From Candidatus Gottesmanbacteria bacterium (GTDB lineage Bacteria; Patescibacteriota; Microgenomatia; UBA10105; UBA927), in NCBI GenBank assembly GCA_030679255.1, contig JAUXTO010000025.1, positions 8,719-72,718 of the forward strand: a DNA stretch of 64,000 nucleotides, read 5' to 3'. The position numbers were made by a program, and so were the translations under genes. The notes under the pieces are model-generated. The model did not search any database, was not told where the DNA came from, and saw nothing but the letters and a program-made list of their open reading frames with translations. Of this stretch, positions 4,101-40,901 are shown in pieces (position 1 is the stretch's first letter; each line of letters begins with the position of its first letter).

Positions 4101-4979
4101 ATGACAGCAATAAACAACAAAAATCTAAAATTAGCGATGCAAAAAGAGGGGCGGCTGACCGAAGAAACGCTTGAATTTTTGCGTAAATCCGGCCTGGAAT
4201 TTGAAAGCTACAACCAAAGGCTTTTCTCGACATGCAGAAATTTTCCATTAGAGATCCTCTACGTGCGAGATGATGACATACCAGACTATGTAGCCTCCGG
4301 AACGGTTGATCTGGGGATCCTCGGACAAAATATACTCTCTGAGGAGAGACCGAAGGTAAAAAAACTCCTCAATTTACGTTTTGGGTTTTGTACGCTTTTT
4401 ATTGCGGTCCCAAAGGAATCACAGATCAATAATCTCTCCGATCTCAATGGCAAAACCATCGCGACAACCTACCCTAACTCTACCCAAAATTTTCTTCTAA
4501 AGAATAAAGTTGAAGCAAAAATAGTAACAATAAGCGGATCTGTGGAAATCACCCCTGCCCTTGGCGTAGCCGATGCCATATCCGACCTTCTCTCTACCGG
4601 AAGCACCCTGGCTCTGAATGATTTGCGGCCACTGACTAAAGTCTACGACTCCGAAGCCATACTCATCGCAAATGAAGAAAGTGTCGCATCCAAAAATAAA
4701 ATGATGCTCCTTAATAATCTTCTGACGAGATTTAAAGGAGTACTCTCAGCAAAAAATTACAAATATATACTGATGAGCGCTCCCGAAGAAAAACTCACGA
4801 AAATTAAAAAAATGCTGCCATCTCTTATTTTCCCCACGCTCGCAACGATTTCAAAAAATGGTTTTACGACGCTTCAAACCGTTATAAAAGAAGATGTACT
4901 TTGGGACATAACAGGCAAACTCAAAGCCGCAGGTATATCGCAAATCTTCGTATTGCCGATAGAAAAAATTATTTCGTAA
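4101..4979 (+). CDS. hisG: ATP phosphoribosyltransferase, long form
   Basis: 292 aa with HisG motifs (LAMQKEGRL, DIPDYVASGTVDLGILGQN) and the C-terminal regulatory domain. A strong SD sits upstream. Confidence 0.9.
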   Translation: MTAINNKNLKLAMQKEGRLTEETLEFLRKSGLEFESYNQRLFSTCRNFPLEILYVRDDDIPDYVASGTVDLGILGQNILSEERPKVKKLLNLRFGFCTLFIAVPKESQINNLSDLNGKTIATTYPNSTQNFLLKNKVEAKIVTISGSVEITPALGVADAISDLLSTGSTLALNDLRPLTKVYDSEAILIANEESVASKNKMMLLNNLLTRFKGVLSAKNYKYILMSAPEEKLTKIKKMLPSLIFPTLATISKNGFTTLQTVIKEDVLWDITGKLKAAGISQIFVLPIEKIIS

Positions 4980-4982
4980 AAT

Positions 4983-6280
4983 ATATGAACATCTACTCAC
5001 TCAGCGCCATACCGAACACTGTATATGACCGTGTCATGAAGCGATCATATGGATCCAGAGCGGACATACTCCCTCGCGTTCAACAAATTTTTGAAGATGT
5101 AAGAAAATACAAAGACCGTGCACTTTTCCAAGAATATGAAAAGCGATTCGGCTTAACTCCTTCATTTTCTTTAAAAATATCACGCAAGGAAATAAAAAGT
5201 GCGTATAAGAGGGTTGACTCGTCTCTGGTTCAAGCGCTCCAACAGATGATAAAAAATATTACCAAAGTAACTACGGCTCAGATGAAGTCAAAAACTGAGA
5301 CTGCAGTATCTACGGAAAAAGGGGTCAGAGCATGGCGGGAATGGAGAGCAATAGAAAAGGTTGGCCTCTATATTCCCGGCGGAAAAGCTGTGTATCCATC
5401 TTCAGTGCTCATGAGTGGGATACCTGCGATGGTTGCCGGATGCAAAGAAGTCATTCTCTGCTCCCCTCCTTCGGATAAAGGAAAAATTCCAGCGATTATC
5501 CTCGTCGCGGCAGATATGATCGGTATTTCAAATATTTACTCCGTAGGCGGCGCTTACGCGATTGCGGCGCTGACGATTGGCACAGAAAGCATACCAAAAG
5601 TCGACAAAATTATTGGTGCGGGAAATGCGCTTGTCACGACCGCTAAAATACTAGCACTTGAAACCACAAGTATCGATATGCCGGCAGGACCGTCTGAGGT
5701 ATTCATCATCGCAGACGAATCCGCAAATCCTTCCTACATCGCTTCGGATCTTCTGGCAGACGGCGAACACGGAGATGACTCGGCGTGCGTCCTCGTCACA
5801 ACATCATCTGATGTCGCCAAGAGCACGATACTTGAAATAGAAAAACAATTAATACACTTGCCTACTGCATCTCGTGTTCGCGAATCGCTAAGAAAGTACG
5901 GACTCGTTGCCGTTGTCAATTCTCTAGAGCAAGCAATCATTTTTGCAAATGACTACGCACCGGAGCACTTGGAAATTATGACAAAAAATCCAGTCGCGGT
6001 ATCTAAAAAAATTAATAATGCTGGCTCTGTTTTTATCGGAAACTATACATCCAAATCGGCAGGAGACTATGCTACCGGTGCGAATCACATATTGCCGACC
6101 GGTGGCATGGCAAAATCATATCCTCCTCTAGGTGTAGACGCGTTTGGGAAATGGATGCAGATCCAAGAATGCACAAAACAGGGCTTAAAAAATATTCAAA
6201 AAACAATTGAAGCCATCGCGACAGTGGAACAATTGCCAGCACACAAAAATTCTACATCAATACGATTTCAAAGTATATGA
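4983..6280 (+). CDS. hisD: Histidinol dehydrogenase
   Basis: HisD family motifs (GGKAVYPSSVLMSGIPAMVAGC, NHILPTGG). Start chosen at MNIYSLS just after the hisG stop. Confidence 0.9.
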
Positions 6281-7839
6281 ATAATCTAGTATTACAAAGA
6301 ATACGAAATATGAAACCATACGCGCTTCCAATCTCTGAGAGGCGTGCGTATCGTGGAATGCTGTTAGACTTTAACGAGCGCACAGTATCGACTTCTCCTA
6401 TCATCAAAAAAGCTATATTAAACCTATTGAAATCAGACACATTGCAGCTATACCCAGAATACGGTGGACTTGAGGTAAAGTTAGCGAAATATGCAGGCGT
6501 CGATTCAGATCAGATATTAATTACAAACGGATCTGACCAAGGGATTGATCTTGTATTTCGTACATTTACAGAAACCGGAGACACTGTCATCATTCCAACT
6601 CCCAGTTTTGCAATGTTCTCTCAGTCTGCTTGTATATCAGGAAATAAAATTCTCCGTCCTATGTATGCTAAGAAGAATTTGTCGTTTCCTCTCGATGACG
6701 TACTGTCAATGATAAATGGATCCATAAAACTCATTGTCCTCTGTAACCCAAATAACCCTACCGGCACAGCAGTGTCAATTGATGGTATTGAGCAAATTGC
6801 GCAGAGGGCACCTAATGCAATAATTCTTGTCGACGAAGCATATTTTGAATTTTCAGCACTTACAGCTGTTACGCTCATTGAGAAATACCCAAACATTATC
6901 GTAATACGAACACTTTCAAAAGCCTTTGGCCTCTCGTCACTGCGTATCGGCTATATTGTTGCATCAAAAAATTACATTAATGAGTTTTCTAAAATTCGAG
7001 GACCGTTTGATGTAAATATGATCGCATACACAGCTTCACTGGCAGCACTTGAGGACCTAAAAGACATGCAAAGGTATGTGAATGAAGTAATGAAAAAATC
7101 CAAGCCGATGATTGAAAAATTTTTCTTTGAAAACGATATAAGATTTTATGCATCTGCTGCTAACTTTATTCTTTATAAACCAATTCAAGAACAGGAAGAA
7201 AAAATATTAAGAGACAACGGCATCTTAGTACGTGCACAAGATAAAACTAATATAGAAAATACCCTTCGTTTAACTATAGGAACTATTGAACAGATGAAAC
7301 AATTCATAAAAGTTTACCGAAATAAGATATTGAAAAAATCGAAATCAATAAAATACGCGTTTATAGATCGCGACGGAACATTAATTTTTGAGCCTCAAGA
7401 TACATTTCAGATTGACAGCATAGAGAAGTTAAAAATTTTAGACGGAGTAATCCCTTCACTCAATAAACTCAGTAAGAAAGGGTACGAACTTATTATGGTA
7501 TCAAATCAGGATGGCTTAGGAACGTCGGCTTTTCCACTTGCAAATTTTGAAGTGCCTCAAAACAAAATGCTAGAAATTTTTGAGAAAAATGGTATTACAT
7601 TTACCAAAATATATATCTGTCCACACATGCCATCGGAAAGCTGTATGTGCAGGAAACCAAAAATCGGACTTGTAAAAAAATTTCTAAAAGTGAACCAGAT
7701 AGACAAGAATAACTCCTTTGTCTGTGGAGATCGAGAGACTGACAGACGCTTTGCAAAAAATATCGGAATCAAATATGTCTCTATGAAAACGAATGGAAAT
7801 TTTCAAACAGCTCTATCACAAGGAGGTATAATTGTATGA
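6277..7839 (+). CDS. hisC: Histidinol-phosphate aminotransferase fused to a C-terminal HAD-type histidinol-phosphatase domain
   Basis: The first ~350 aa are class-II aminotransferase (NPNNPTG, SKAFGLSSLRIGY). The C-terminal ~165 aa is a HAD phosphatase (FIDRDGTL, GmhB/HisB-N-like). The start is ATGA-overlapped with the hisD stop. Confidence 0.8.
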   Translation: MNNLVLQRIRNMKPYALPISERRAYRGMLLDFNERTVSTSPIIKKAILNLLKSDTLQLYPEYGGLEVKLAKYAGVDSDQILITNGSDQGIDLVFRTFTETGDTVIIPTPSFAMFSQSACISGNKILRPMYAKKNLSFPLDDVLSMINGSIKLIVLCNPNNPTGTAVSIDGIEQIAQRAPNAIILVDEAYFEFSALTAVTLIEKYPNIIVIRTLSKAFGLSSLRIGYIVASKNYINEFSKIRGPFDVNMIAYTASLAALEDLKDMQRYVNEVMKKSKPMIEKFFFENDIRFYASAANFILYKPIQEQEEKILRDNGILVRAQDKTNIENTLRLTIGTIEQMKQFIKVYRNKILKKSKSIKYAFIDRDGTLIFEPQDTFQIDSIEKLKILDGVIPSLNKLSKKGYELIMVSNQDGLGTSAFPLANFEVPQNKMLEIFEKNGITFTKIYICPHMPSESCMCRKPKIGLVKKFLKVNQIDKNNSFVCGDRETDRRFAKNIGIKYVSMKTNGNFQTALSQGGIIV

Positions 7840-8426
7840 ACCGAAAAGCAATAATAAGCAGGAAAACAAACGAAACTGACATTTCAGTAGACCTGAACAT
7901 TGACGGAACAGGAAAAAGAACTATAGATATACCGATAGGATTTCTAACGCACATGTTGGATCTATTGTCCAAACACGGCATGTTTGATCTTTCCATAAAA
8001 GCTCGCGGAGATACAAATATAGACGAGCACCACACGGTCGAAGACATTGGCATTGTCTTGGGCGAGGCGTTCGCAAAAGCTCTTGGGGATAAAAAGGGCA
8101 TCAGTCGATATGGCTTTTTTATACTCCCGATGGATGAAGCAGTGGCGACGGTGGCTGTCGATTTTGCGGGACGATATGCGTTTACGCTCGACTGTCCATT
8201 TTCCCGAGAAAAGGTTGGTGATTTACCAACAGAGCTCGTCTATGATTTCTGGGATGCATTTGCCCAAAACGCAAAGGTAAATTTATTTATCAAAGTCGAA
8301 AACGGCCGGAACGATCACCACAAAATTGAAGGGGTATTTAAAGCAACTGCCCGGGCAATACGTATGGCGTGCGGATGGGACGAGCGGGCAATCAATCAAT
8401 TACCATCAACAAAAGGAACGTTATGA
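7836..8426 (+). CDS. hisB: Imidazoleglycerol-phosphate dehydratase
   Basis: IGPD motifs (IDEHHTVEDIGIVLGEA, GRNDHHKIEGVFKA). Confidence 0.9.
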   Translation: MNRKAIISRKTNETDISVDLNIDGTGKRTIDIPIGFLTHMLDLLSKHGMFDLSIKARGDTNIDEHHTVEDIGIVLGEAFAKALGDKKGISRYGFFILPMDEAVATVAVDFAGRYAFTLDCPFSREKVGDLPTELVYDFWDAFAQNAKVNLFIKVENGRNDHHKIEGVFKATARAIRMACGWDERAINQLPSTKGTL

Positions 8427-9037
8427 TAACCATCATTGATTATGGATTGGGAAATATCGGAAGCGTGGCAAACACGCTTACGCGACTTGGCCAAACGTAC
8501 CAAATAAGCGCTGACCCAGCAGAGATCAGATCTGCTGATGTGCTGTTATTGCCGGGTGTCGGCGCGGCGGGGGTTGGCATGAAAAATTTACGGGATCGAG
8601 GGCTCGACGTTGCTATTCGACGTGCAATACAAAACGGAAAACCATTTCTTGGAATTTGCCTCGGTATGCAATTGTTGTTTGACTATAGCGAAGAAGCCGA
8701 TACTCCATGTCTGGGAATACTCAAGGGATCGGTGAAAAAATTTCAGCGCGAACGGAAGGTGCCCCAAATCGGATGGAATCTAGTAATTCCGGTCAAGACA
8801 AATCCGAATGCTGTGCGATTGTTTGCCGGCATTCCGGAAAGAAACGCGTTTTATTTTGTAAACAGTTATTACCCAATTCCGGCTGATACGTCAGTCGTTG
8901 CGGCGACAACCGAATATGGCGAGCAGTTTGCAAGTGTCGTTGCGATAAAAAATATCGTTGCGACACAATTCCACCCGGAAAAAAGCGGCGAAACAGGACT
9001 CAGATTGTTACAAAATTTTATAAAGGAGTATGTATGA
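8423..9037 (+). CDS. hisH: Imidazole glycerol phosphate synthase, glutamine amidotransferase subunit
   Basis: [15 protein letters not shown]..., GICLGMQ and a catalytic H near the C-terminus. The start overlaps the hisB stop. Confidence 0.9.
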
Positions 9038-9798
9038 CAACCAAACGCATTATTCCATGTCTGGATATGACGCAAGGAAAAGTGGTGAAAGGGATTCAAT
9101 TCGTGGATTTCCGGGATGCCGGAGATCCGGTCGTGCTTGCCAAAAAATACAGTGAAACAGGAGCGGATGAATTAGTATTTTTGGATATCACGGCCACGGT
9201 TGAAAATCGGCCAATTCTTTTGGATGTTGTGGAGAGAACGGCAAAAAATGTAACTATCCCTTTTTCCGTAGGCGGCGGTATCAGAACTATCGAAGATATG
9301 CGTCAAATATTACTAGCCGGAGCGGATAAGGTATCGGTAAACACTGGAGCGGTAAATAACCCTGCGCTCATTACGAAATGTGCCAACGCATTTGGCAATC
9401 AGTGTGTAGTACTGTCTTTAGATGCAAAACAGATGGCACCAGGACAGTGGAATGCTTTTATTAACGGTGGCATGAAGGATTCTGGTAAATCAGCGATTGA
9501 TTGGGCAAAAGAAGCCACGCGGTTAGGTGCGGGCGAAATTCTTCTGACGAGTATCGATCAAGACGGTACAAAAAAAGGATTTAATATAGGTCTTACAAGA
9601 GAAGTTTCTCGGAACGTATCCGTACCGGTGATAGCTTCAGGAGGAGCCGGGAAAAAAGAGGATTTTTTAGATGTGTTTGTAAAGGGTGAAGCGGACGCTG
9701 CTCTTGCCGCATCATTGTTTCACTTTAGCGAATTGACAATCAAGGAGCTTAAACAATATCTCAAAGAACAAAATGTCATAATACGGGAGGCTTTATGA
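9034..9798 (+). CDS. hisF: Imidazole glycerol phosphate synthase, cyclase subunit
   Basis: [17 protein letters not shown] and ASGGAG match HisF. No hisA lies between hisH and hisF. Confidence 0.9.
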
Positions 9799-10115
9799 AG
9801 AATGTAACGATAGATTTTAGTAAAAGAAATGGATTGGTACCCGCTATTATTCAGGATTTTCAAAGCGGAGTTGTTTACATGCTCGGATATATGAATAAAG
9901 AAGCGTTCGAAAAAACAAAGGAAACCAGTTGGGTATATTTTTGGAGCAGAAGCAGAGAATGTTTATGGATGAAGGGAGAAGAATCAGGAAATAAACTAAG
10001 AGTAAAAGAGATTCTTATTGATTGTGATAACGATACAATTTTAGTAAAGATCAAATTGGATGGAAAAAACGCGTGTCACACAGGCAATATAACATGTTTT
10101 AATACGAAATTGTGA
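9795..10115 (+). CDS. hisI: Phosphoribosyl-AMP cyclohydrolase
   Basis: 106 aa with GLVPAIIQD and CHTG motifs. Confidence 0.85.
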
Positions 10116-12092: not shown

Positions 12093-13298
12093 ATGATCAC
12101 ACCACAAACACTCAAAGGATTTCGCGATTTCTTGCCGGCTGACGCGCTCAAGCGGCAATACGCCATCAACATCATTCGGCGTACATTCGAGTCTTTTGGA
12201 TTTGAGCCTCTGGAAACTCCCGCTCTTGAATACTTGGAAACATTTGCCGGCAATATCGGTGAGGATGAAAAATTATTTTTCAAATTTAAAGACCAGGGCG
12301 ACCGGGATGTGGCGCTTCGGTACGATCAAACGGTCCCGACCTGCCGTGTCATCGCCCAATATCCGGATAAAATATCCCTCCCTTTTAAACGCTATCAGAT
12401 CCAGACAGTTTGGCGGGCCGAAAAACCCCAGCGGGGACGCTTCCGTGAATTTTTGCAGTGCGACGCAGACATCTTCGGCGTTGACCACCGCGCGGCGGAC
12501 GGCGAAACGATTGCCCTCACGATCCAAATATTTAAAAATTTAGGGTTTAAAAATCCGACCGCCATCATCAATGACCGCGCGCTCTACCAAGGTGTCCCGT
12601 ATAAAGCAATTGTCGCGATAGATAAGCTTGCCAAAATCGGAGAAGACGGCGTTGTTGCCGAACTCATAAAAAAGGAATATACGGAAAAAGACGCAAGAAC
12701 ACTTTTAGATACCGTCAAAAACAGCAAACCCAACGACGCTCTCAAAACGATATTCGCGTTTCTTGATGCGTATGGCATGAAAGAACAGTATCGCTTTGAG
12801 CCCACGCTTGCCCGGTCGTTTAATTACTCGACCGGCACCATCTGGGAAATTGTCGATCCCGCCTTCACCGCCGGTTCCATGGCCGGATGCGAACGCTTTG
12901 ACAGTCTCGTCGGAAAATTCAGTAACCGAAACGTACCCGCTGTCGGGTTTGCCGTTGGATTTGACCGGACGATGGTCGCCATGGAAGAACTCGGGTTATT
13001 CCCCGCCGTCACGACGACCACCGCCGTCCTCGTTACAATTTTTTCGGAAAACTCGCTTGCCGCATCACAATCCATGACACAAACACTCCGCGGGGCCGGG
13101 ATTAACACGGATCTCTATCCGGATCCGAACACGAAACTCGAAAAACAACTCAAGTACGCCGATCGAAAAGGCATCCCGTATGTTGTAATTCAAGGGCCGG
13201 AGGAAGTCTCACGGGGCGTTGTAAAATTAAAAGACATGAAAGCCAAGACGCAAGTAGAAATGACGGTTGAAAAAATTATTCAAAAACTTAAATCTTAA
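12093..13298 (+). CDS. hisS: Histidyl-tRNA synthetase
   Basis: Class II motifs (GFRDFLP, RYDQTVP, RGRFREFLQCDADIFG) plus a C-terminal anticodon-binding domain. The anticodon-binding domain means it is not HisZ. Confidence 0.85.
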   Translation: MITPQTLKGFRDFLPADALKRQYAINIIRRTFESFGFEPLETPALEYLETFAGNIGEDEKLFFKFKDQGDRDVALRYDQTVPTCRVIAQYPDKISLPFKRYQIQTVWRAEKPQRGRFREFLQCDADIFGVDHRAADGETIALTIQIFKNLGFKNPTAIINDRALYQGVPYKAIVAIDKLAKIGEDGVVAELIKKEYTEKDARTLLDTVKNSKPNDALKTIFAFLDAYGMKEQYRFEPTLARSFNYSTGTIWEIVDPAFTAGSMAGCERFDSLVGKFSNRNVPAVGFAVGFDRTMVAMEELGLFPAVTTTTAVLVTIFSENSLAASQSMTQTLRGAGINTDLYPDPNTKLEKQLKYADRKGIPYVVIQGPEEVSRGVVKLKDMKAKTQVEMTVEKIIQKLKS

Positions 13299-14300: not shown

Positions 14301-14669
14301 CTACGCCACATCGGAGGTGATAATTTCATTCGTAAAATATTTTTGCTCGCATACATGCCAGGTTTGCAGCGTGCCCCCACGACCATTTCTATACTTTTTT
14401 GCTGTATTTTTACGATGTTCCATCCAATCCCTATCTAATACGTTACGATCATTTATTTTCAAAGTCGAACTTTTCCAACCACATGGATCATCGCTTCCAG
14501 TAGGTGCTATGCAAACAATCTGCATGTGCGTAGCAAGGTCGAATTGAGCGTCTGGTAATGCTATGAGTTTAGAAACGTCACTTGGTGTTACTACTACAGC
14601 TTCTTTCATAGATTTCCCGATCCAATGGGGCAAGAGCATGATCATACTCTCTCCCTGCCCAAAATACAA
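14301..14669 (-). CDS. Hypothetical protein
   Basis: 122-aa ORF of non-low-complexity sequence (DDPCGWKSSTLKINDRNVLDRDW). No recognisable family, and the start is uncertain. Confidence 0.35.
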   Translation of the reverse strand: MYFGQGESMIMLLPHWIGKSMKEAVVVTPSDVSKLIALPDAQFDLATHMQIVCIAPTGSDDPCGWKSSTLKINDRNVLDRDWMEHRKNTAKKYRNGRGGTLQTWHVCEQKYFTNEIITSDVA

Positions 14670-14690: not shown

Positions 14691-15002
14691 ATGAAGTCAG
14701 ACATACACCCCAAATGGTACCCAACAGCCGTCGTCTCGTGCCAGTGTGGCAATACGTTTACCGTCGGGGCGTCCAAGCCCGAGATCAAAACCGATATCTG
14801 TGCCAAATGTCATCCGTTCTTCACCGGCGAGATGAAATTCGTCGATGCCTTGGGCAGGGTCGAACGCTTCCAGAATAAACAAAAAGTCGGAGCCGCTATG
14901 GCCAATGCTGTCGCGGATAAAAAGAAAAAGAAAAAAGACCACGAAGAAGCCGCCCGAAACGCCCCGAAATCCCTCAAAGAAATGTTGATGGGACTCAAAT
15001 AG
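14691..15002 (+). CDS. rpmE: Ribosomal protein L31 with a K-rich C-terminal extension
   Basis: MKSDIHPKWYPTAVVSCQCGNTF...CAKCHPFFTG is the L31 signature. The tail is ~35 aa longer than usual. Confidence 0.85.
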   Translation: MKSDIHPKWYPTAVVSCQCGNTFTVGASKPEIKTDICAKCHPFFTGEMKFVDALGRVERFQNKQKVGAAMANAVADKKKKKKDHEEAARNAPKSLKEMLMGLK

Positions 15003-15148
15003 CAATCCAATTAAATTCCAAGCATCAAGTACCAAGCATCAAACAAACGAATACAAATACCAATATACAAACAATTCTCGTTATTACCGTTTATTTTCAT
15101 TTGATGCTTTGATATTGTTTGGTACTTGAATATTGGAATTTGGTGCTT
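15003..15148. repeat. Family 3 long imperfect hairpin element (accaagcatcaa ... ttgatattgtttg ... ggtgctta)
   Basis: Inverted arms of about 45 nt share ccaagcatcaa / ttgatgctt and aattccaa / ttggaatt. It lies between rpmE and prfA. Confidence 0.7.
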
Positions 15149-15862
15149 ATGAATAATGATATCACGATTCTCGAACTCCGTCCCGGACCGGGTGGTGATG
15201 AAGCCAAGATATGGGCCGGCGATCTCATGCGCATGTACACGCGCTACGGGACTATCATGGGCTGGAAAGTAGAGAGCCTTGATGATTTAGTTATCCGCAT
15301 ACGGGGAACAGGCGTATTTACTAAACTCCAATATGAGGCCGGCACCCACCGCGTCCAACGAATCCCGTCTACAGAGCGCCATGGCCGGATCCATACCTCT
15401 ACGGCAACCGTTGCCGTCCTTCCCGAAATTCCGGAAAATGAAGTCACCATCCGCAACGACGACCTCGAGTGGGATTTTTTCCGCTCAGGGGGCAAAGGAG
15501 GACAAAACGTCAATAAGGTGAGTTCGGCCGTCCGACTTCGGCATAAACCCTCAGGCATCGTCGTGGCCTGCCAAACCGAGCGGGACCAATTTCAAAACCG
15601 CAGCGTAGCCCTCTCGATGCTGCGGGCCAAACTCTGGGAACGGGAACTCCTTGCCCGAGAGCAGACGATGACGGAGCAACGAAGTGTGATTGGTCGCGGC
15701 ATGCGCGCGGAAAAAATCCGCACCTATAATTATCCTCAAAACCGCGTCACCGACCACCGCATAAACAAATCCTGGCACAATCTGGAAGATGTTATGAGTG
15801 GAAAAATGCAAAAGATTTCCGAAGTGCTCTCTACTCTCCTTGATTCCCCAACGTCACCGTAA
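15149..15862 (+). CDS. prfA: Class-I peptide chain release factor (RF1-like, PST and GGQ motifs) lacking N-terminal domain 1
   Basis: It aligns to E. coli RF1 from about residue 105 onward. RIPSTERHGRIHTSTATVAVLPE carries the PxT-type motif and SGGKGGQNVNKV the GGQ. No N-terminal domain-1 coding sequence lies upstream. The 5' end abuts the hairpin element at 15003-15148. Confidence 0.75.
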   Translation: MNNDITILELRPGPGGDEAKIWAGDLMRMYTRYGTIMGWKVESLDDLVIRIRGTGVFTKLQYEAGTHRVQRIPSTERHGRIHTSTATVAVLPEIPENEVTIRNDDLEWDFFRSGGKGGQNVNKVSSAVRLRHKPSGIVVACQTERDQFQNRSVALSMLRAKLWERELLAREQTMTEQRSVIGRGMRAEKIRTYNYPQNRVTDHRINKSWHNLEDVMSGKMQKISEVLSTLLDSPTSP

Positions 15863-17033
15863 TATCTTTTTCCTTCTCATCACGCCAGACAGTAAGCTTG
15901 ACGGAATCACCGACTTTTTTCTTACTAATCGATTTTGCCAAATCATTTTTATCATCAAGTTTTGTGCCATCAATTTTGGTTATGACATCTTCTGCTTTGA
16001 GTCCCGCTTTATCAGCCGGCCCTCCCTTTACCACTTCCTGCACATACGCTCCCTCGGGAATTTCGTTAAGGATCGCCGTTTGCCGAGGAATCATACGGTA
16101 CTGCACGCCAAGAAATGGGCGGTTAAACTGACCCGTCGCGTTAAAATTGGCAAGCGCTTCTTTGACCACGTTGATGGGTAGGGCAAATCCGATATTTTGT
16201 CCCTGCGCTGACACCGCCGTATTGACCCCCACCACCTGGCCCGCAGAATTAAGGAGTGGTCCGCCGGAATTACCGGGATTGATCGCCGCGTCCGTCTGGA
16301 TGACGTTATCGAGGCGTTCTGCCGATCCCTCAAAGGGACTGCCTGCGTCTATCCCCCGCCCCACGCCGGAAATGACACCGGTCGTCACGGTATGACGAAA
16401 CTCGCCCAAGGCAGTGCCAATTGCAATCGCCATTTGACCAACTTTTATTTTATCCGAATCCCCCAATTCCACAGTCGGCAGCTCTCGCCCTGATCCGTCA
16501 GCTGACGGAGAAGGGTCAATTTTTAGAATTGCCAAGTCATTACTCGGATCGCGGTAAATCTTCTTAATTTCATAGGTTTTGTCATCTTTCGTGATTACGC
16601 GGTACGTCGCGTCGGTCATCTCGACCACGTGTTTATTGGTGACGATAAGGCCATCGCTCCCCACAATGAAACCTGATCCAATATCCTGCTCAAATTTTTG
16701 GGTTTTACCGGGCCGCCGCTGAAACGGACTAAAGGGATCAAAAGGATTAAACTCGAGGATATCACCGATCCGCCTGTTTTGCGTGATGCCGATTGTGACA
16801 ACGGCAGGAGAGACTTTATCCACGACATCAATGACCACCGATTCCTCCGTCACGACTTTGACTTTTTCATCTTCTGGCAGTGTGATCGTTTTGGAAGTTG
16901 AAAATTGTGGCAGTTTGATGGAAAGATACTTTTCTAAAAACTTCCAGTTGAGGCCAAACTGGCCGGAGCTCACCACGGCACCGCTGATCAACGCCAACGC
17001 TGCTACACTGATAAAAAATTTCTGTAACTTCAT
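15831..17033 (-). CDS. htrA: HtrA/DegP family serine protease (trypsin-like domain plus PDZ)
   Basis: GSGFIVGSDGLIVTNKHVV and TDAAINPGNSGGPLLN, followed by a PDZ domain. An in-frame 16-bp palindrome insertion at 16486-16517 encodes DPSPSADGSG. Confidence 0.9.
   Translation of the reverse strand: MKLQKFFISVAALALISGAVVSSGQFGLNWKFLEKYLSIKLPQFSTSKTITLPEDEKVKVVTEESVVIDVVDKVSPAVVTIGITQNRRIGDILEFNPFDPFSPFQRRPGKTQKFEQDIGSGFIVGSDGLIVTNKHVVEMTDATYRVITKDDKTYEIKKIYRDPSNDLAILKIDPSPSADGSGRELPTVELGDSDKIKVGQMAIAIGTALGEFRHTVTTGVISGVGRGIDAGSPFEGSAERLDNVIQTDAAINPGNSGGPLLNSAGQVVGVNTAVSAQGQNIGFALPINVVKEALANFNATGQFNRPFLGVQYRMIPRQTAILNEIPEGAYVQEVVKGGPADKAGLKAEDVITKIDGTKLDDKNDLAKSISKKKVGDSVKLTVWRDEKEKDITVTLGNQGE
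16486..16517. repeat. Family 4 palindromic insertion (tccgtcagctgacgga), copy in htrA
   Basis: cgccctgatccgtcagctgacggagaagggtc encodes DPSPSADGSG. Confidence 0.75.
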
Positions 17034-38198: not shown

Positions 38199-39071
38199 CT
38201 ATAACTTCAGGCTTTTGAGGTAGTCGCGGAAGTCGCCATTCAAGTCTTTGTGCTGGAGGGCAAATTCGACGACAGTTTTAAGGTATTCAAGCTTGTTGCC
38301 AGTATCAAAATACTTACCATCTTTTATCTCGCAGGCGTATACCGGACGAGTTTTCATAAGCTGACGGATCGCATCGGTAAGCCAGATCTCATCACTTTTA
38401 CCCGGCTTGAGAGACTCGAGGAGCGGAAATATATCCGGAGTCAGCACATAACATCCATGGGCGGCTAGATTACTGGGAGCTTCCTCCGAGGTCGGTTTTT
38501 CGATAAGGCGCTTAATCTGCCAAATATTCTTTTCGATATTATTTGCGTCTACTATACCATAGCGAGACACGTCTCCCTTCGGTACCCGCACGGCAGAGAT
38601 CACCGGATCACCGTATTTTTCAAACACGTCTATACACTGACGCGTACGAGGTGGCGTGCTATAGATGAACTCGTCTCCCCAGATAGCCACAAACGGCTCG
38701 TTGCCGATTACTGGTTTGGCGCAGAGTACCGGCGTCCCGTTACCGTACGGTCCTTTTTGACGAACATAGATAAAGTTAGCAAGCGATGAGGTACGTTTGA
38801 CTTCTTCCAAAAGCTTTTCTTTCTTTTGCTGTTCGAGCATTTTGATGAGTTCAAAAGGATAGTCAAAGTGATCCTCGATGGATCGTTTGTGCCAACCCGT
38901 CACGATGACGATGTCCGTAATCCCGCTTGCAACTAATTCCTCAACCACATACTGGATGACGGGCTTATCGACGATCGGCAACATTTCCTTAGGCATGGCC
39001 TTCGTCTGCGGAAGAAAACGGGTACCAAACCCAGCGGCGGGTATGACTGCTTTATGAATTTTTGTAGACAT
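38199..39071 (-). CDS. galU: UTP-glucose-1-phosphate uridylyltransferase
   Basis: AVIPAAGFGTRFLPQTKAMPKEMLPIVDKP is the GalU signature. Confidence 0.9.
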   Translation of the reverse strand: MSTKIHKAVIPAAGFGTRFLPQTKAMPKEMLPIVDKPVIQYVVEELVASGITDIVIVTGWHKRSIEDHFDYPFELIKMLEQQKKEKLLEEVKRTSSLANFIYVRQKGPYGNGTPVLCAKPVIGNEPFVAIWGDEFIYSTPPRTRQCIDVFEKYGDPVISAVRVPKGDVSRYGIVDANNIEKNIWQIKRLIEKPTSEEAPSNLAAHGCYVLTPDIFPLLESLKPGKSDEIWLTDAIRQLMKTRPVYACEIKDGKYFDTGNKLEYLKTVVEFALQHKDLNGDFRDYLKSLKL

Positions 39072-39137
39072 AAATACTTAATTACCGTGCTTTCTATTCT
39101 ATCCGTGCTGTATTCTGTTTGTCAATTTGGTAGTATG

Positions 39138-40901
39138 GAAAGAGTCATGAAACGCATTCTTTCTCTAGCGATACTCGTAGGATTTCTTCTCTTTATTCCC
39201 AAGGCAGCCCTCCACGCCGAAGTTACCGGCCCGCCGGATATCACCACACGGGTTTCGCTGCCCAACTCCATAGATTTTGCCGAAATTGGAGAAAGAAACG
39301 GTGTCTCCTTTCTCTCCGGAATAAAACCTTTTTTTAATCCTACAATCGTCGGAGAAGTAGGATTTGAAGGAAGTTCGCAAAATAAACCCCAAGGCGACGT
39401 TCCGGTTGTATTTTCCTGGCTGGGTCCGCAGTTGAAACTAACCTATCCATTCCTGACCCCAGAGGCCATAGCCACGCGCATACAGCCGATCAATACGGAT
39501 TATACCTACACAACCACCTCAACCTTATGTCTTGCTTCAGATAATGATAATAAACAGGCATTTCCACTCAAGGAACGGATTGTCATGCCGGCGGAGGGAC
39601 TCTCTCAAACCATGGAAGCAGGCGTTATGCTCTCGGGGCTGCTTGCCCCGCAAGTTACCGTGACAAAAGATACCTATGAACACCTCAATGAACTCTTTCC
39701 AAATGTATTAGGATCTATCCTAAAAAATCCAGCCTGCGATCAACCGCCGCCTACTCGTGCTGTAGCCAAAGAGCGTGTTGGTGCTTCGTCTCCGGAAGAG
39801 TATACAGTTCCACCCGATAAACTTCCCGTATATTTATTTAACAAATGGATTTCATCTCTGCCGAAAATCGGCGCGCTATGCTCCGAAACTAACTGCAATC
39901 TCACGGCAAATCCCATGTTTGACCTTCTGCTCAAGACGAAGATACCCTACATCGGAGAGATTTCAAAAAATCTGATGAATGACCCGCTCGATCCGAATAG
40001 TAAGCAGGTCGGCGCTTTGGCAACATTTGTATCAGATAGGTTTTCTATTCAAAACCGGCATGGTGCAGTGACCAATCAAATTATCGAACAAACCATCAAA
40101 TCAAGCAGTGAACCGTTGAAAACTCCCATAAACTATGCACTTGCCAAAACCGCTCAAGATTATTATCAATTTACTAATTGCTCGGTCTACCCCGACTCGC
40201 TTCAGTCCACGAAACTCGACTACAGCTGTAACTTTTCTGAAAATGATGCGACTTCTGATAGGTCGCTTGCTGGTTGGTATACAGATAGTAAACCGCTTGA
40301 TTCAAACTTCTCCTCAAATGTCTTTCAACAATCTACGCAAGACGAGATCAGGCTAGCAACCGATCGCAAAATCCCCGCCTGCGTCTTGGAAGCCGTCAAA
40401 TATATCGAAACTGGTACGCAAACAGATTTTTCCGGCGCCTGCCCAGTGAACGAATGTAGTGCCGCCGGCCCCTATCAAGTCACGACGGGAGCGGCTCCCG
40501 CAAGTGGTGGCGGATGGGATACAAAATGCACTCAATGTCCAGGTCCGGATTGGAGTAAAGGTATCAAAGATTGCCCGGATGGATGGCCAGGAGATTGGCC
40601 AAAAAATCAGAGCAATCCTTCACCATGTAGCGATACAAAGGCTGCCGCGCGGCGCGCCGTTGAGATGCTCCAGGAAAAAGCGGTAATACGATGCGAAGTA
40701 CTAAATGAACAACCGACGAGAGAAGCCATCATTACTGCCGCCGGGAGTTATTATGGAAGTAATGAGCGAGTTGCCCGCCTCGGAGGCTGTTCATACGGAG
40801 AATTTGTCTACAAGCATTGCGATGGCTCGTATGTCTGCGGTACGAAAAATGTAGATCTTGGAGTAAAATACGAACAGTGTCAGGCAAAAAAGAAACTCTG
40901 A
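39138..40901 (+). CDS. Large hypothetical secreted protein with a Cys-rich C-terminal region
   Basis: Signal peptide MKRILSLAILVGFLLFIPKAALHA and a 588-aa body. No family recognised. Confidence 0.5.
   Translation, partial: ERVMKRILSLAILVGFLLFIPKAALHAEVTGPPDITTRVSLPNSIDFAEIGERNGVSFLSGIKPFFNPTIVGEVGFEGSSQNKPQGDVPVVFSWLGPQLKLTYPFLTPEAIATRIQPINTDYTYTTTSTLCLASDNDNKQAFPLKERIVMPAEGLSQTMEAGVMLSGLLAPQVTVTKDTYEHLNELFPNVLGSILKNPACDQPPPTRAVAKERVGASSPEEYTVPPDKLPVYLFNKWISSLPKIGALCSETNCNLTANPMFDLLLKTKIPYIGEISKNLMNDPLDPNSKQVGALATFVSDRFSIQNRHGAVTNQIIEQTIKSSSEPLKTPINYALAKTAQDYYQFTNCSVYPDSLQSTKLDYSCNFSENDATSDRSLAGWYTDSKPLDSNFSSNVFQQSTQDEIRLATDRKIPACVLEAVKYIETGTQTDFSGACPVNECSAAGPYQVTTGAAPASGGGWDTKCTQCPGPDWSKGIKDCPDGWPGDWPKNQSNPSPCSDTKAAARRAVEMLQEKAVIRCEVLNEQPTREAIITAAGSYYGSNERVARLGGCSYGEFVYKHCDGSYVCGTKNVDLGVKYEQCQAKKKL

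Follow-up and report, generated by a model that had tools for sequence, protein, structure and literature searches.

We examined a 64,000-nucleotide (nt) stretch of Candidatus Gottesmanbacteria DNA (GenBank assembly GCA_030679255.1, contig JAUXTO010000025.1, positions 8,719 to 72,718 of the forward strand; hereafter the window), in which the open reading frame (ORF) at 15149-15862 encodes a class-I release factor (RF) of 237 amino acids that comprises only domains 2, 3 and 4 of RF1. Very probably, this ORF is the orthologous, functional prfA of Gottesmanbacteria (Microgenomates; candidate phyla radiation, CPR/Patescibacteria), its product being an RF1 permanently without domain 1. The features on which this reading turns all lie on the forward strand:

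14691-15002, +: rpmE, ribosomal protein L31, 103 amino acids, TAG stop (Pfam PF01197, E 1.3e-25; also called in the matching Logan contig)
15003-15148, +: rpmE-prfA spacer, 146 nt, one long imperfect A/T-rich hairpin of short repeats (RNA folding)
15110-15112, +: in-frame TGA, 13 codons before the prfA ATG (read from the sequence; open-frame analysis)
15149-15862, +: short prfA, ATG start, TAA stop, 237-amino-acid class-I RF1 with domains 2, 3 and 4 only (family and structure-database matches)
15191-15202, +: helix alpha5 tip, G15-G16-D17-E18
15272-15289, +: position at which 10 residues are missing from the domain-2 beta-hairpin (gap relative to T. maritima RF1 and full-length RF1/RF2)
15365-15373, +: PST, the PxT "peptide anticodon" of RF1, residues 73-75 (read from the sequence)
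15497-15505, +: GGQ catalytic motif, residues 117-119, in the context GGKGGQNVNKV, which spans 15488-15517 (read from the sequence)

A three-domain RF1 encoded directly downstream of rpmE

Family and structure matches place the start of the protein at the equivalent of E. coli RF1 residue ~106-112; i.e., relative to the four-domain RF architecture, the N-terminal helical domain 1 is absent. In Pfam, only positions 102-194 of the 194-position PCRF profile (PF03462, E 2.6e-31) are aligned, to residues 6-88 of the short RF1, with the RF-1 domain (PF00472, E 8.7e-38) matched over its full length at residues 96-204. The NCBIfam prfA models likewise align only from profile position 106 of 347 (NF001859) and 113 of 361 (TIGR00019), and alignments to Protein Data Bank (PDB) entries cover residues 112-342 of the 360 in E. 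coli RF1 and 86-320 of T. maritima RF1. RF1 is the best-matching family (321.5 bits for NF001859 and 312.6 bits for TIGR00019 vs 208 for prfB). Assignment to other RF families fails by both score and motif: against the prfB model TIGR00020 the protein reaches 207.6 bits (cut-off, 370) and carries PST instead of SPF; against the RF-H (PrfH) model TIGR03072 it reaches 71.2 bits (cut-off, 166.65), displaying a canonical PxT head and no RtcB neighbour; and against the ArfB model NF006718 it reaches 53.5 bits (cut-off, 100) via a match limited to residues 97-132, with domains 2 and 4 present.

Domain 1 would require ~105 residues (~315 nt), and the rpmE-prfA gap spans only 146 nt. Within this gap, the TGA at 15110-15112 limits any N-terminal extension to 10 amino acids (from a TTG at 15119). 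Moreover, tblastn with four RF1 domain-1 queries revealed no domain-1 remnant upstream in any frame, whether in the window or at any short-RF1 locus, with positive controls for these queries detected at E 1e-13 to 1e-63. These results bear out an earlier note on the window, which had the RF1-like ORF begin near E. coli RF1 residue ~105, retain the PxT-type motif, GGQ and the C-terminal domains, follow a hairpin element, and have no coding capacity for domain 1 upstream; the domain-boundary check by profile gave PCRF from position 102 only and a complete RF-1 domain, and the sequence observation was confirmed in every particular.

The note had overlooked one further departure from full-length RFs, the 10-residue deletion in domain 2, which falls after the sequence GWKVE. 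This deletion is present in Microgenomates RF1s and in short RF2s of Parcubacteria, and absent from full-length RFs and from the short RF1s of two more distant loci (L040 and L042). The loop concerned presumably corresponds to the E167 region of E. coli RF2, in which charge changes alter stop-codon specificity.

Decoding and catalytic residues and predicted structure

Residue conservation was analyzed in an alignment of 97 RF1 sequences, both short and full-length. At the tip of helix alpha5, residues G15, G16 and E18 are invariant; we take G15-G16-D17-E18 to correspond to G116/E119 of T. thermophilus RF1, residues that recognise U1 of the stop codon in 70S-RF1 structures. Equally invariant are the reading-head residues Q70, P73, T75, H82 and T83, all three residues of GGQ (G117, G118 and Q119), and R186, T192, N194 and R199 of the switch loop and domain 4, the structural roles of which we assume to be those in the T. 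thermophilus and E. coli complexes.

Among 120 close homologues, a PxT motif was found in 106 (PTT in 68, PST in 27, PAT in 5, PQT in 3, PET in 2 and PIT in 1), the search pattern being unmatched in the other 14; SPF occurs in none. The GGQNVN context is shared by 119 of the 120 and by most short RF2s, the canonical context being GAGGQHVNK. The window contains no gene for the GGQ methyltransferase PrmC, and none was found in the 10 kb to either side of prfA in relatives; in an Aminicenantes outgroup, prmC overlaps prfA.

An AlphaFold2 model of the short RF1 (mean confidence score, pLDDT, 84.3) matched ribosome-bound T. thermophilus RF1 with a template-modelling (TM) score of 0.91 and a root-mean-square deviation of 1.9 A (Foldseek). 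Matches to the closed, free crystal forms reached TM scores of only 0.55-0.58; the open, ribosome-bound form is thus the better fit.

The short form is conserved across relatives and under purifying selection

The 120 database clusters closest to the short RF1 (77-100% identity; names including Candidatus Gottesmanbacteria, Woesebacteria and "Patescibacteria group") all measure 230-251 amino acids, and in 116 of them exactly 12 residues precede the GxGG(D/E)(D/E)A motif. A scan for orthologues, restricted to one genome per GTDB species, yielded 37 loci. In 32 Gottesmanbacteria/Microgenomates genomes, several of them represented by contigs or chromosomes of 1.0-1.2 Mb, the short RF1 occurs at 69-94% identity, with a stop codon 1-27 (usually 1-13) codons before its start; none of these 32 loci has an intact domain 1. 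Intact copies in relatives, together with a full-length prfA elsewhere, were what the earlier note had named as pointing to a recent truncation or pseudogene. From the ATG onwards the N-terminus follows the conserved pattern MN-x-D/N-I/V-A-I-L/M-E-F/L-R, and the short form with this same N-terminus is found in >100 independent assemblies.

Gene order is equally stable. Directly upstream of the short prfA lies rpmE in 30 of the 32 genomes, i.e., in all of those with upstream sequence present, and adjacency of the two genes holds at 40 of 42 loci overall; at the other two (L011 and L038), the contigs extend upstream by only 99 and 267 nt beyond the RF1 match. The intervening spacers measure 0-534 nt, and no more than 33 nt in eight genomes. 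In the non-CPR outgroup recovered by the same scan (Aminicenantes, L039), a full-length prfA of 364 amino acids starts 7 nt after rpmE and is followed by prmC; the short prfA thus occupies the ancestral genomic position, directly 3' of rpmE. With a 78%-identical relative (1.23-Mb contig), the window shares the order hisS - EamA - unknown - rpmE - prfA - htrA - S41 protease - S18 - ssb - S6. Two of the neighbours are encoded on the reverse strand:

14301-14669, -: conserved ORF of 112-122 amino acids and unknown function, between the EamA transporter gene and rpmE (counterpart in relative L002 at 9189-9527; no significant Pfam match)
15831-17033, -: HtrA-like serine protease gene (Trypsin_2 + PDZ), convergent with prfA (Pfam; synteny in L001-L005)

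The last 32 nt of prfA (15831-15862) are shared with the HtrA-like gene.

Codon-level comparison of 31 orthologues of the short form gave ratios of nonsynonymous to synonymous substitution rates (dN/dS) of 0.055 against the closest relative, 0.086 at the median and 0.15 at most. The short prfA is therefore old, fixed and under purifying selection.

In one Gottesmanbacteria metagenome-assembled genome (MAG; L037 10001-11299), the RF1 frame shows an internal deletion or frameshift at about residue 148-178 and extends to 432 codons, as either a pseudogene or an assembly error. Taxon labels derive from the titles of the database records, and many of those given to MAGs are plainly incorrect. Gottesmanbacteria-type rpmE-prfA loci (72-94% protein identity) occur, for instance, in eleven GTDB representative MAGs (L006, L012, L015, L018, L020, L021, L023, L027, L029, L034 and L036) that evidently bear the title "uncultured Gammaproteobacteria bacterium" in error.

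The rpmE-prfA spacer

The 146-nt spacer of the window folds into a single hairpin with a minimum free energy (as RNA) of -39.2 kcal/mol (z = -4.9), a stability reached by 0 of 200 shuffled sequences, so that the structure described in the earlier note is real. Its inverted-repeat arms (15013-15038 and 15116-15141) are 85% complementary, and the base of the stem extends to the prfA start codon. The hairpin matches no Rfam family and contains no terminator or promoter consensus, and no second copy was found in the window or in 166 loci; on these grounds, a mobile or repeated element was rejected. At the same position, other lineages carry different A/T-rich hairpins that are unrelated in sequence; these are made up of short tandem repeats plus the complement of the repeats, frequently with a T-run immediately before the prfA ATG. 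Some relatives have no spacer at all. The lineage-specific hairpins and the spacer-poor loci are as follows:

Spacer hairpins: L006 706-779; L004 9922-10000; L017 6579-6657; L014 9946-10000; window 15003-15148
Spacer of 0-33 nt, no hairpin, same short start: L008, L009, L010, L016, L018, L021, L028, L035

The hairpin is a fast-evolving feature of the spacer, unrelated to the loss of domain 1, and possibly serves as a terminator or as a structure that masks translation.

In some relatives, the same interval has received insertions. In five of them, a gene of ~120 amino acids from the 23S_rRNA_IVP/four-helix-bundle family (PF05635, E 1.5e-15) lies between rpmE and prfA:

PF05635 insertions: L007 9535-10000; L012 9580-10000; L013 2182-2684; L031 5580-6113; L034 9496-10000

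In three more (L025 10001-10121, L036 2474-2634 and L022 9742-10000), the first ~20 prfA codons are partly duplicated in the spacer, and a conserved hairpin (GGTTGCTTA...TTAGCAACC) comes after the duplicate. The arrangement resembles an insertion in which the 5' end of the target gene was copied, with the gene itself remaining intact downstream.

Comparison with known release factors

Relative to canonical RF1 (PrfA of E. coli, T. thermophilus and T. maritima; PDB 4V63, 5J30 and 1RQ0), the short protein is orthologous by best match and rpmE-prfA synteny, and shares domains 2-4, the PxT motif, the reading-head residues, GGQ and the open ribosome-bound fold (TM 0.91). It differs in lacking domain 1 (~105 residues) and the 10-residue domain-2 hairpin, in having GGQNVNKV instead of GGQHVNK, and in the absence of an adjacent prmC. 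The nearest precedent, with the same architecture, is the set of E. coli RF1 and RF2 proteins engineered to lack the N-terminal domain (Mora, Zavialov, Ehrenberg and Buckingham 2003, as recounted in PMC1586002). According to that account, domains 2-4 are enough both for codon-specific release in vitro and for growth: E. coli RF1 without domain 1 retains its activity in release and its specificity for codons, and is functional in vivo, but no longer stimulates RF3. These truncations are laboratory constructs with a growth cost, whereas Gottesmanbacteria carry a natural deletion that has become fixed and is conserved throughout a large lineage.

Other natural homologues share less. RF-H (PrfH, the partner of RtcB2) is a class-I RF homologue that also lacks domain 1 and combines a domain-2-like module with GGQ, but it has a different "anticodon" region, an RtcB ligase neighbour and an accessory role on damaged ribosomes. 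ArfB (YaeJ), ICT1 and C12orf65 are GGQ-domain proteins without domain 1; there, the codon-reading domains 2 and 4 are absent as well, and a C-terminal tail occupies the empty mRNA channel. The closest natural parallel comes from short RF2s of Parcubacteria (Jorgensen-, Harrison-, Nomura- and Brennerbacteria; Minisyncoccia), which have in common with the short RF1 the loss of domain 1, the domain-2 deletion, GGQNVNK, a length of 228-255 amino acids and an ancestral synteny. They differ in being RF2 paralogues (SPF/SPY) from another CPR class, 36-40% identical to the window RF1.

Alternative explanations

As an alternative to a naturally domain-1-less RF, the earlier note had raised a recent 5' truncation, in which insertion of the hairpin at 15003-15148 stripped domain 1 from a full-length prfA and left a pseudogene. 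Such an event would be in keeping with a strongly structured hairpin abutting the start codon and with the confinement of its exact sequence to this genome. Yet relatives with a spacer of 0-33 nt and no hairpin share the same short N-terminus, others have the same short protein behind unrelated hairpins, the 120 closest clusters are all short, dN/dS stands at ~0.06-0.15, and tblastn found no trace of domain 1; the orthologous loci refute this explanation, and we give it next to no weight. The natural form, by comparison, is supported by conservation in >100 assemblies, strong purifying selection and the ancestral rpmE-prfA position. Extremely improbable, too, is an annotation artefact whereby a non-standard start, a frameshift or read-through of the upstream stop would generate a longer true protein. 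Programmed frameshifting is known in RF2 genes and the TTG at 15119 would add 10 amino acids; nevertheless, 146 nt separate prfA from rpmE vs the ~315 nt needed for domain 1, the spacer shrinks to 0-30 nt or the genes overlap in several relatives, no upstream frame encodes a domain-1-like sequence, and conservation of the N-terminal MN-x-D/N-I/V-A-I begins at the ATG.

Should the protein instead be a specialised paralogue, it would act as an accessory release or rescue factor akin to RF-H or ArfB, with a canonical full-length RF1 encoded elsewhere in the genome. Natural domain-1-less homologues (RF-H, ArfB and ICT1) are indeed accessory factors, the score of the short RF1 lies under the prfA equivalog cut-off, and the search for RFs covered loci as opposed to whole genomes. 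We nonetheless consider this idea improbable, given that the gene sits in the rpmE-prfA position occupied by full-length prfA in the outgroup, that every canonical RF1 decoding residue is kept (unlike in RF-H) as are domains 2 and 4 (unlike in ArfB), that the RF-H and ArfB matches are far weaker (71 and 54 vs 321 bits), and that no RtcB-type partner is found nearby. Furthermore, there is no second RF within the 64 kb of the window or within 20 kb at 41 loci, and RF1 and RF2 are each encoded only once in a cultivated CPR genome. A split gene, with domain 1 made as a separate polypeptide that joins the short RF1 in trans, is more doubtful still. Domain 1 is helical and flexibly joined to the rest of the factor (PMC1586002), and a conserved ORF of unknown function (14301-14669) adjoins rpmE on the opposite strand. 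However, the four domain-1 queries gave no tblastn match at E <= 5 in the window or in the loci of 37 relatives save for chance hits off-locus, and Pfam, giving no RF-like match for the conserved neighbouring ORF (114 amino acids), lends no support to it as a substitute for domain 1. We also know of no precedent for an RF domain 1 encoded in trans.

Several points nevertheless weigh against a functional, permanently three-domain RF1. The protein scores below the prfA equivalog cut-offs (321.5 vs 400 for NF001859 and 312.6 vs 423.25 for TIGR00019), a shortfall that arises because the first ~105 profile positions are absent, and its NCBI labels go only as far as "PCRF domain-containing" or "release factor-like". 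Ribosomes without L11 are reportedly inactive with RF1 (reviewer comment, PMC1586002), so loss of the domain that touches L11 may require compensating changes. In addition, TGA terminates 23 of the 76 ORFs in the window, which means that RF2 activity must exist, and a metagenome pattern scan plus two homologue searches did not recover an RF2 from Gottesmanbacteria. Finally, the search for a full-length prfA, a separate domain 1 or prfC spanned the 64-kb window and ~20 kb around prfA in 37 relatives.

Release factors elsewhere in the CPR

Besides the short prfA, tblastn with the short RF1 and two short RF2s detected no second RF in the window, and neither a second RF nor ftsE/ftsX nor prmC lies within ~10 kb of prfA at 41 related loci. 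No translational-GTPase domain, as expected of RF3, is found among the ten longest ORFs of the window. A degenerate DNA pattern combining RF2 motifs with GGQNVN matched 120 metagenome loci, three of which encode short RF2s of 232-242 amino acids. Homologue searches seeded from short RF2s reached only Parcubacteria, yielding ~240 RF2 clusters, mostly of 228-255 amino acids (with two outliers of 278 and 306) and with SPF or SPY motifs; named carriers include Jorgensen-, Brenner-, Harrison- and Nomurabacteria, Paceibacterota and Minisyncoccia. In the loci checked, the short RF2 genes lie in prfB-ftsE-ftsX synteny, as in other bacteria. The N-termini of these proteins and of the short RF1s fall at the same position in the structure, and the 10-residue domain-2 deletion is common to both; two of the RF2 genes that carry it are those of L095 and L165.

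Additional short RF1s came from representatives clustered at 50% identity, namely P0127 (232 amino acids), P0140 (242) and P0123 from Amesbacteria (256), and from three distant MAGs (43-48% identity) whose RF1s of 242-244 amino acids abut or overlap rpmE and keep the domain-2 hairpin; two of these MAGs are labelled Saccharibacteria, a label that is unreliable here. An intermediate form, P0124, is an RF1 of 303 amino acids with a ~70-residue stump of domain 1 and the domain-2 deletion already present. In the cultivated Saccharibacterium Southlakia epibionticum, RF1 (1068 nt) and RF2 (1083 nt) are full-length and both essential, prmC adjoins prfA, and the complete gene tables list one RF1, one RF2 and PrmC, with RF3/prfC absent. 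Two further representatives, P0122 (477 amino acids) and P0125 (481 amino acids), were considered as tandem double RFs and rejected; they are full-length RF1s with an internal duplication of ~120-160 residues, most likely an assembly artefact.

On a broader proposal we remain evenly divided: that loss of domain 1 is fixed and ancient in two of the largest CPR classes, Microgenomates having lost it from RF1 and Parcubacteria from RF2 (each class probably from both factors), with an identical domain-2 deletion, and that it follows or accompanies the loss of RF3. The stump of P0124, together with the full-length RFs of Saccharibacteria that have no annotated RF3, points to a stepwise path in which RF3 was lost before domain 1 eroded. 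This suggests a history with RF3 lost early in the radiation and domain 1 eroding independently or progressively in Microgenomates and Parcubacteria.

Proposed mechanism and implications

Domain 1 is the handle by which RF3 recycles RF1 and RF2 and, to our knowledge, is present in essentially all characterised bacterial RF1/RF2 proteins. For termination without it, we propose the following sequence of events. The short RF1 would enter the ribosomal A site and read UAA or UAG through its retained head, i.e., the alpha5 tip G-G-x-E, Q70, P73-S-T75, H82 and T83. It would then open, bringing GGQ (117-119) to the peptidyl-transferase centre for hydrolysis of the peptidyl-tRNA. In the absence of domain 1, the short RF1 would neither contact the L11/L7-L12 stalk region nor stimulate RF3; departure from the ribosome would thus be spontaneous or aided by ribosome recycling factor (RRF) and elongation factor G (EF-G). 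The analysis establishes the architecture, the conserved decoding and catalytic residues, the fold, orthology through synteny, purifying selection and the distribution throughout the lineage; release activity, UAA/UAG specificity and RF3 independence of the short RF1 are inferred, and RF3 itself is presumably absent from the genome. Loss of domain 1 would be tolerable in a slow-growing organism with a small genome, most likely one without RF3, and was probably selected as protein streamlining. Of relevance, prfC is non-essential and missing from small genomes (PMC1586002).

In the openly searchable literature, we found neither a paper on RF3/prfC in the CPR nor a description of a natural RF1 or RF2 without domain 1, which the earlier note had considered known from some reduced genomes; to date, only E. 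coli truncations made by engineering have demonstrated that domain 1 is dispensable. A three-domain RF1 that is natural, strongly conserved and lineage-wide, with a counterpart in RF2 of sister lineages, would mean that codon-specific termination can persist over long periods without domain 1. The short RFs thus offer a test bed for the contributions of domain 1, RF3 and the L11 stalk contact, and bear on an old idea, namely that the ancestral RF acquired domain 1 only later (PMC1586002). Translation termination would also join the simplified features of the CPR ribosome, for which missing uL1, bL9 and uL30 and shortened rRNA have been described in a report that does not mention release factors (PMC9297842). 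Should the pattern hold for RF1 and RF2 across the CPR and be undescribed, the finding gains in interest; a sizeable share of bacterial diversity would then use a minimal three-domain factor with a remodelled contact to the GTPase-associated centre. In practical terms, sub-cut-off scores and names such as "PCRF domain-containing protein" imply that annotations and completeness checks may miscount short RFs.

Other features of the window

The longest ORF of the window (39054-40901) encodes 615 amino acids, for which Pfam yields nothing at E <= 1e-5. Overlapping genes form a run at 4901-10115, among them one for histidinol dehydrogenase (hisD) and one for a fusion of an aminotransferase with a HAD/PNK3P-type phosphatase (hisC-hisB-like). 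Near this run lies hisS (12093-13298), and a histidine-biosynthesis cluster is unexpected in a CPR genome.

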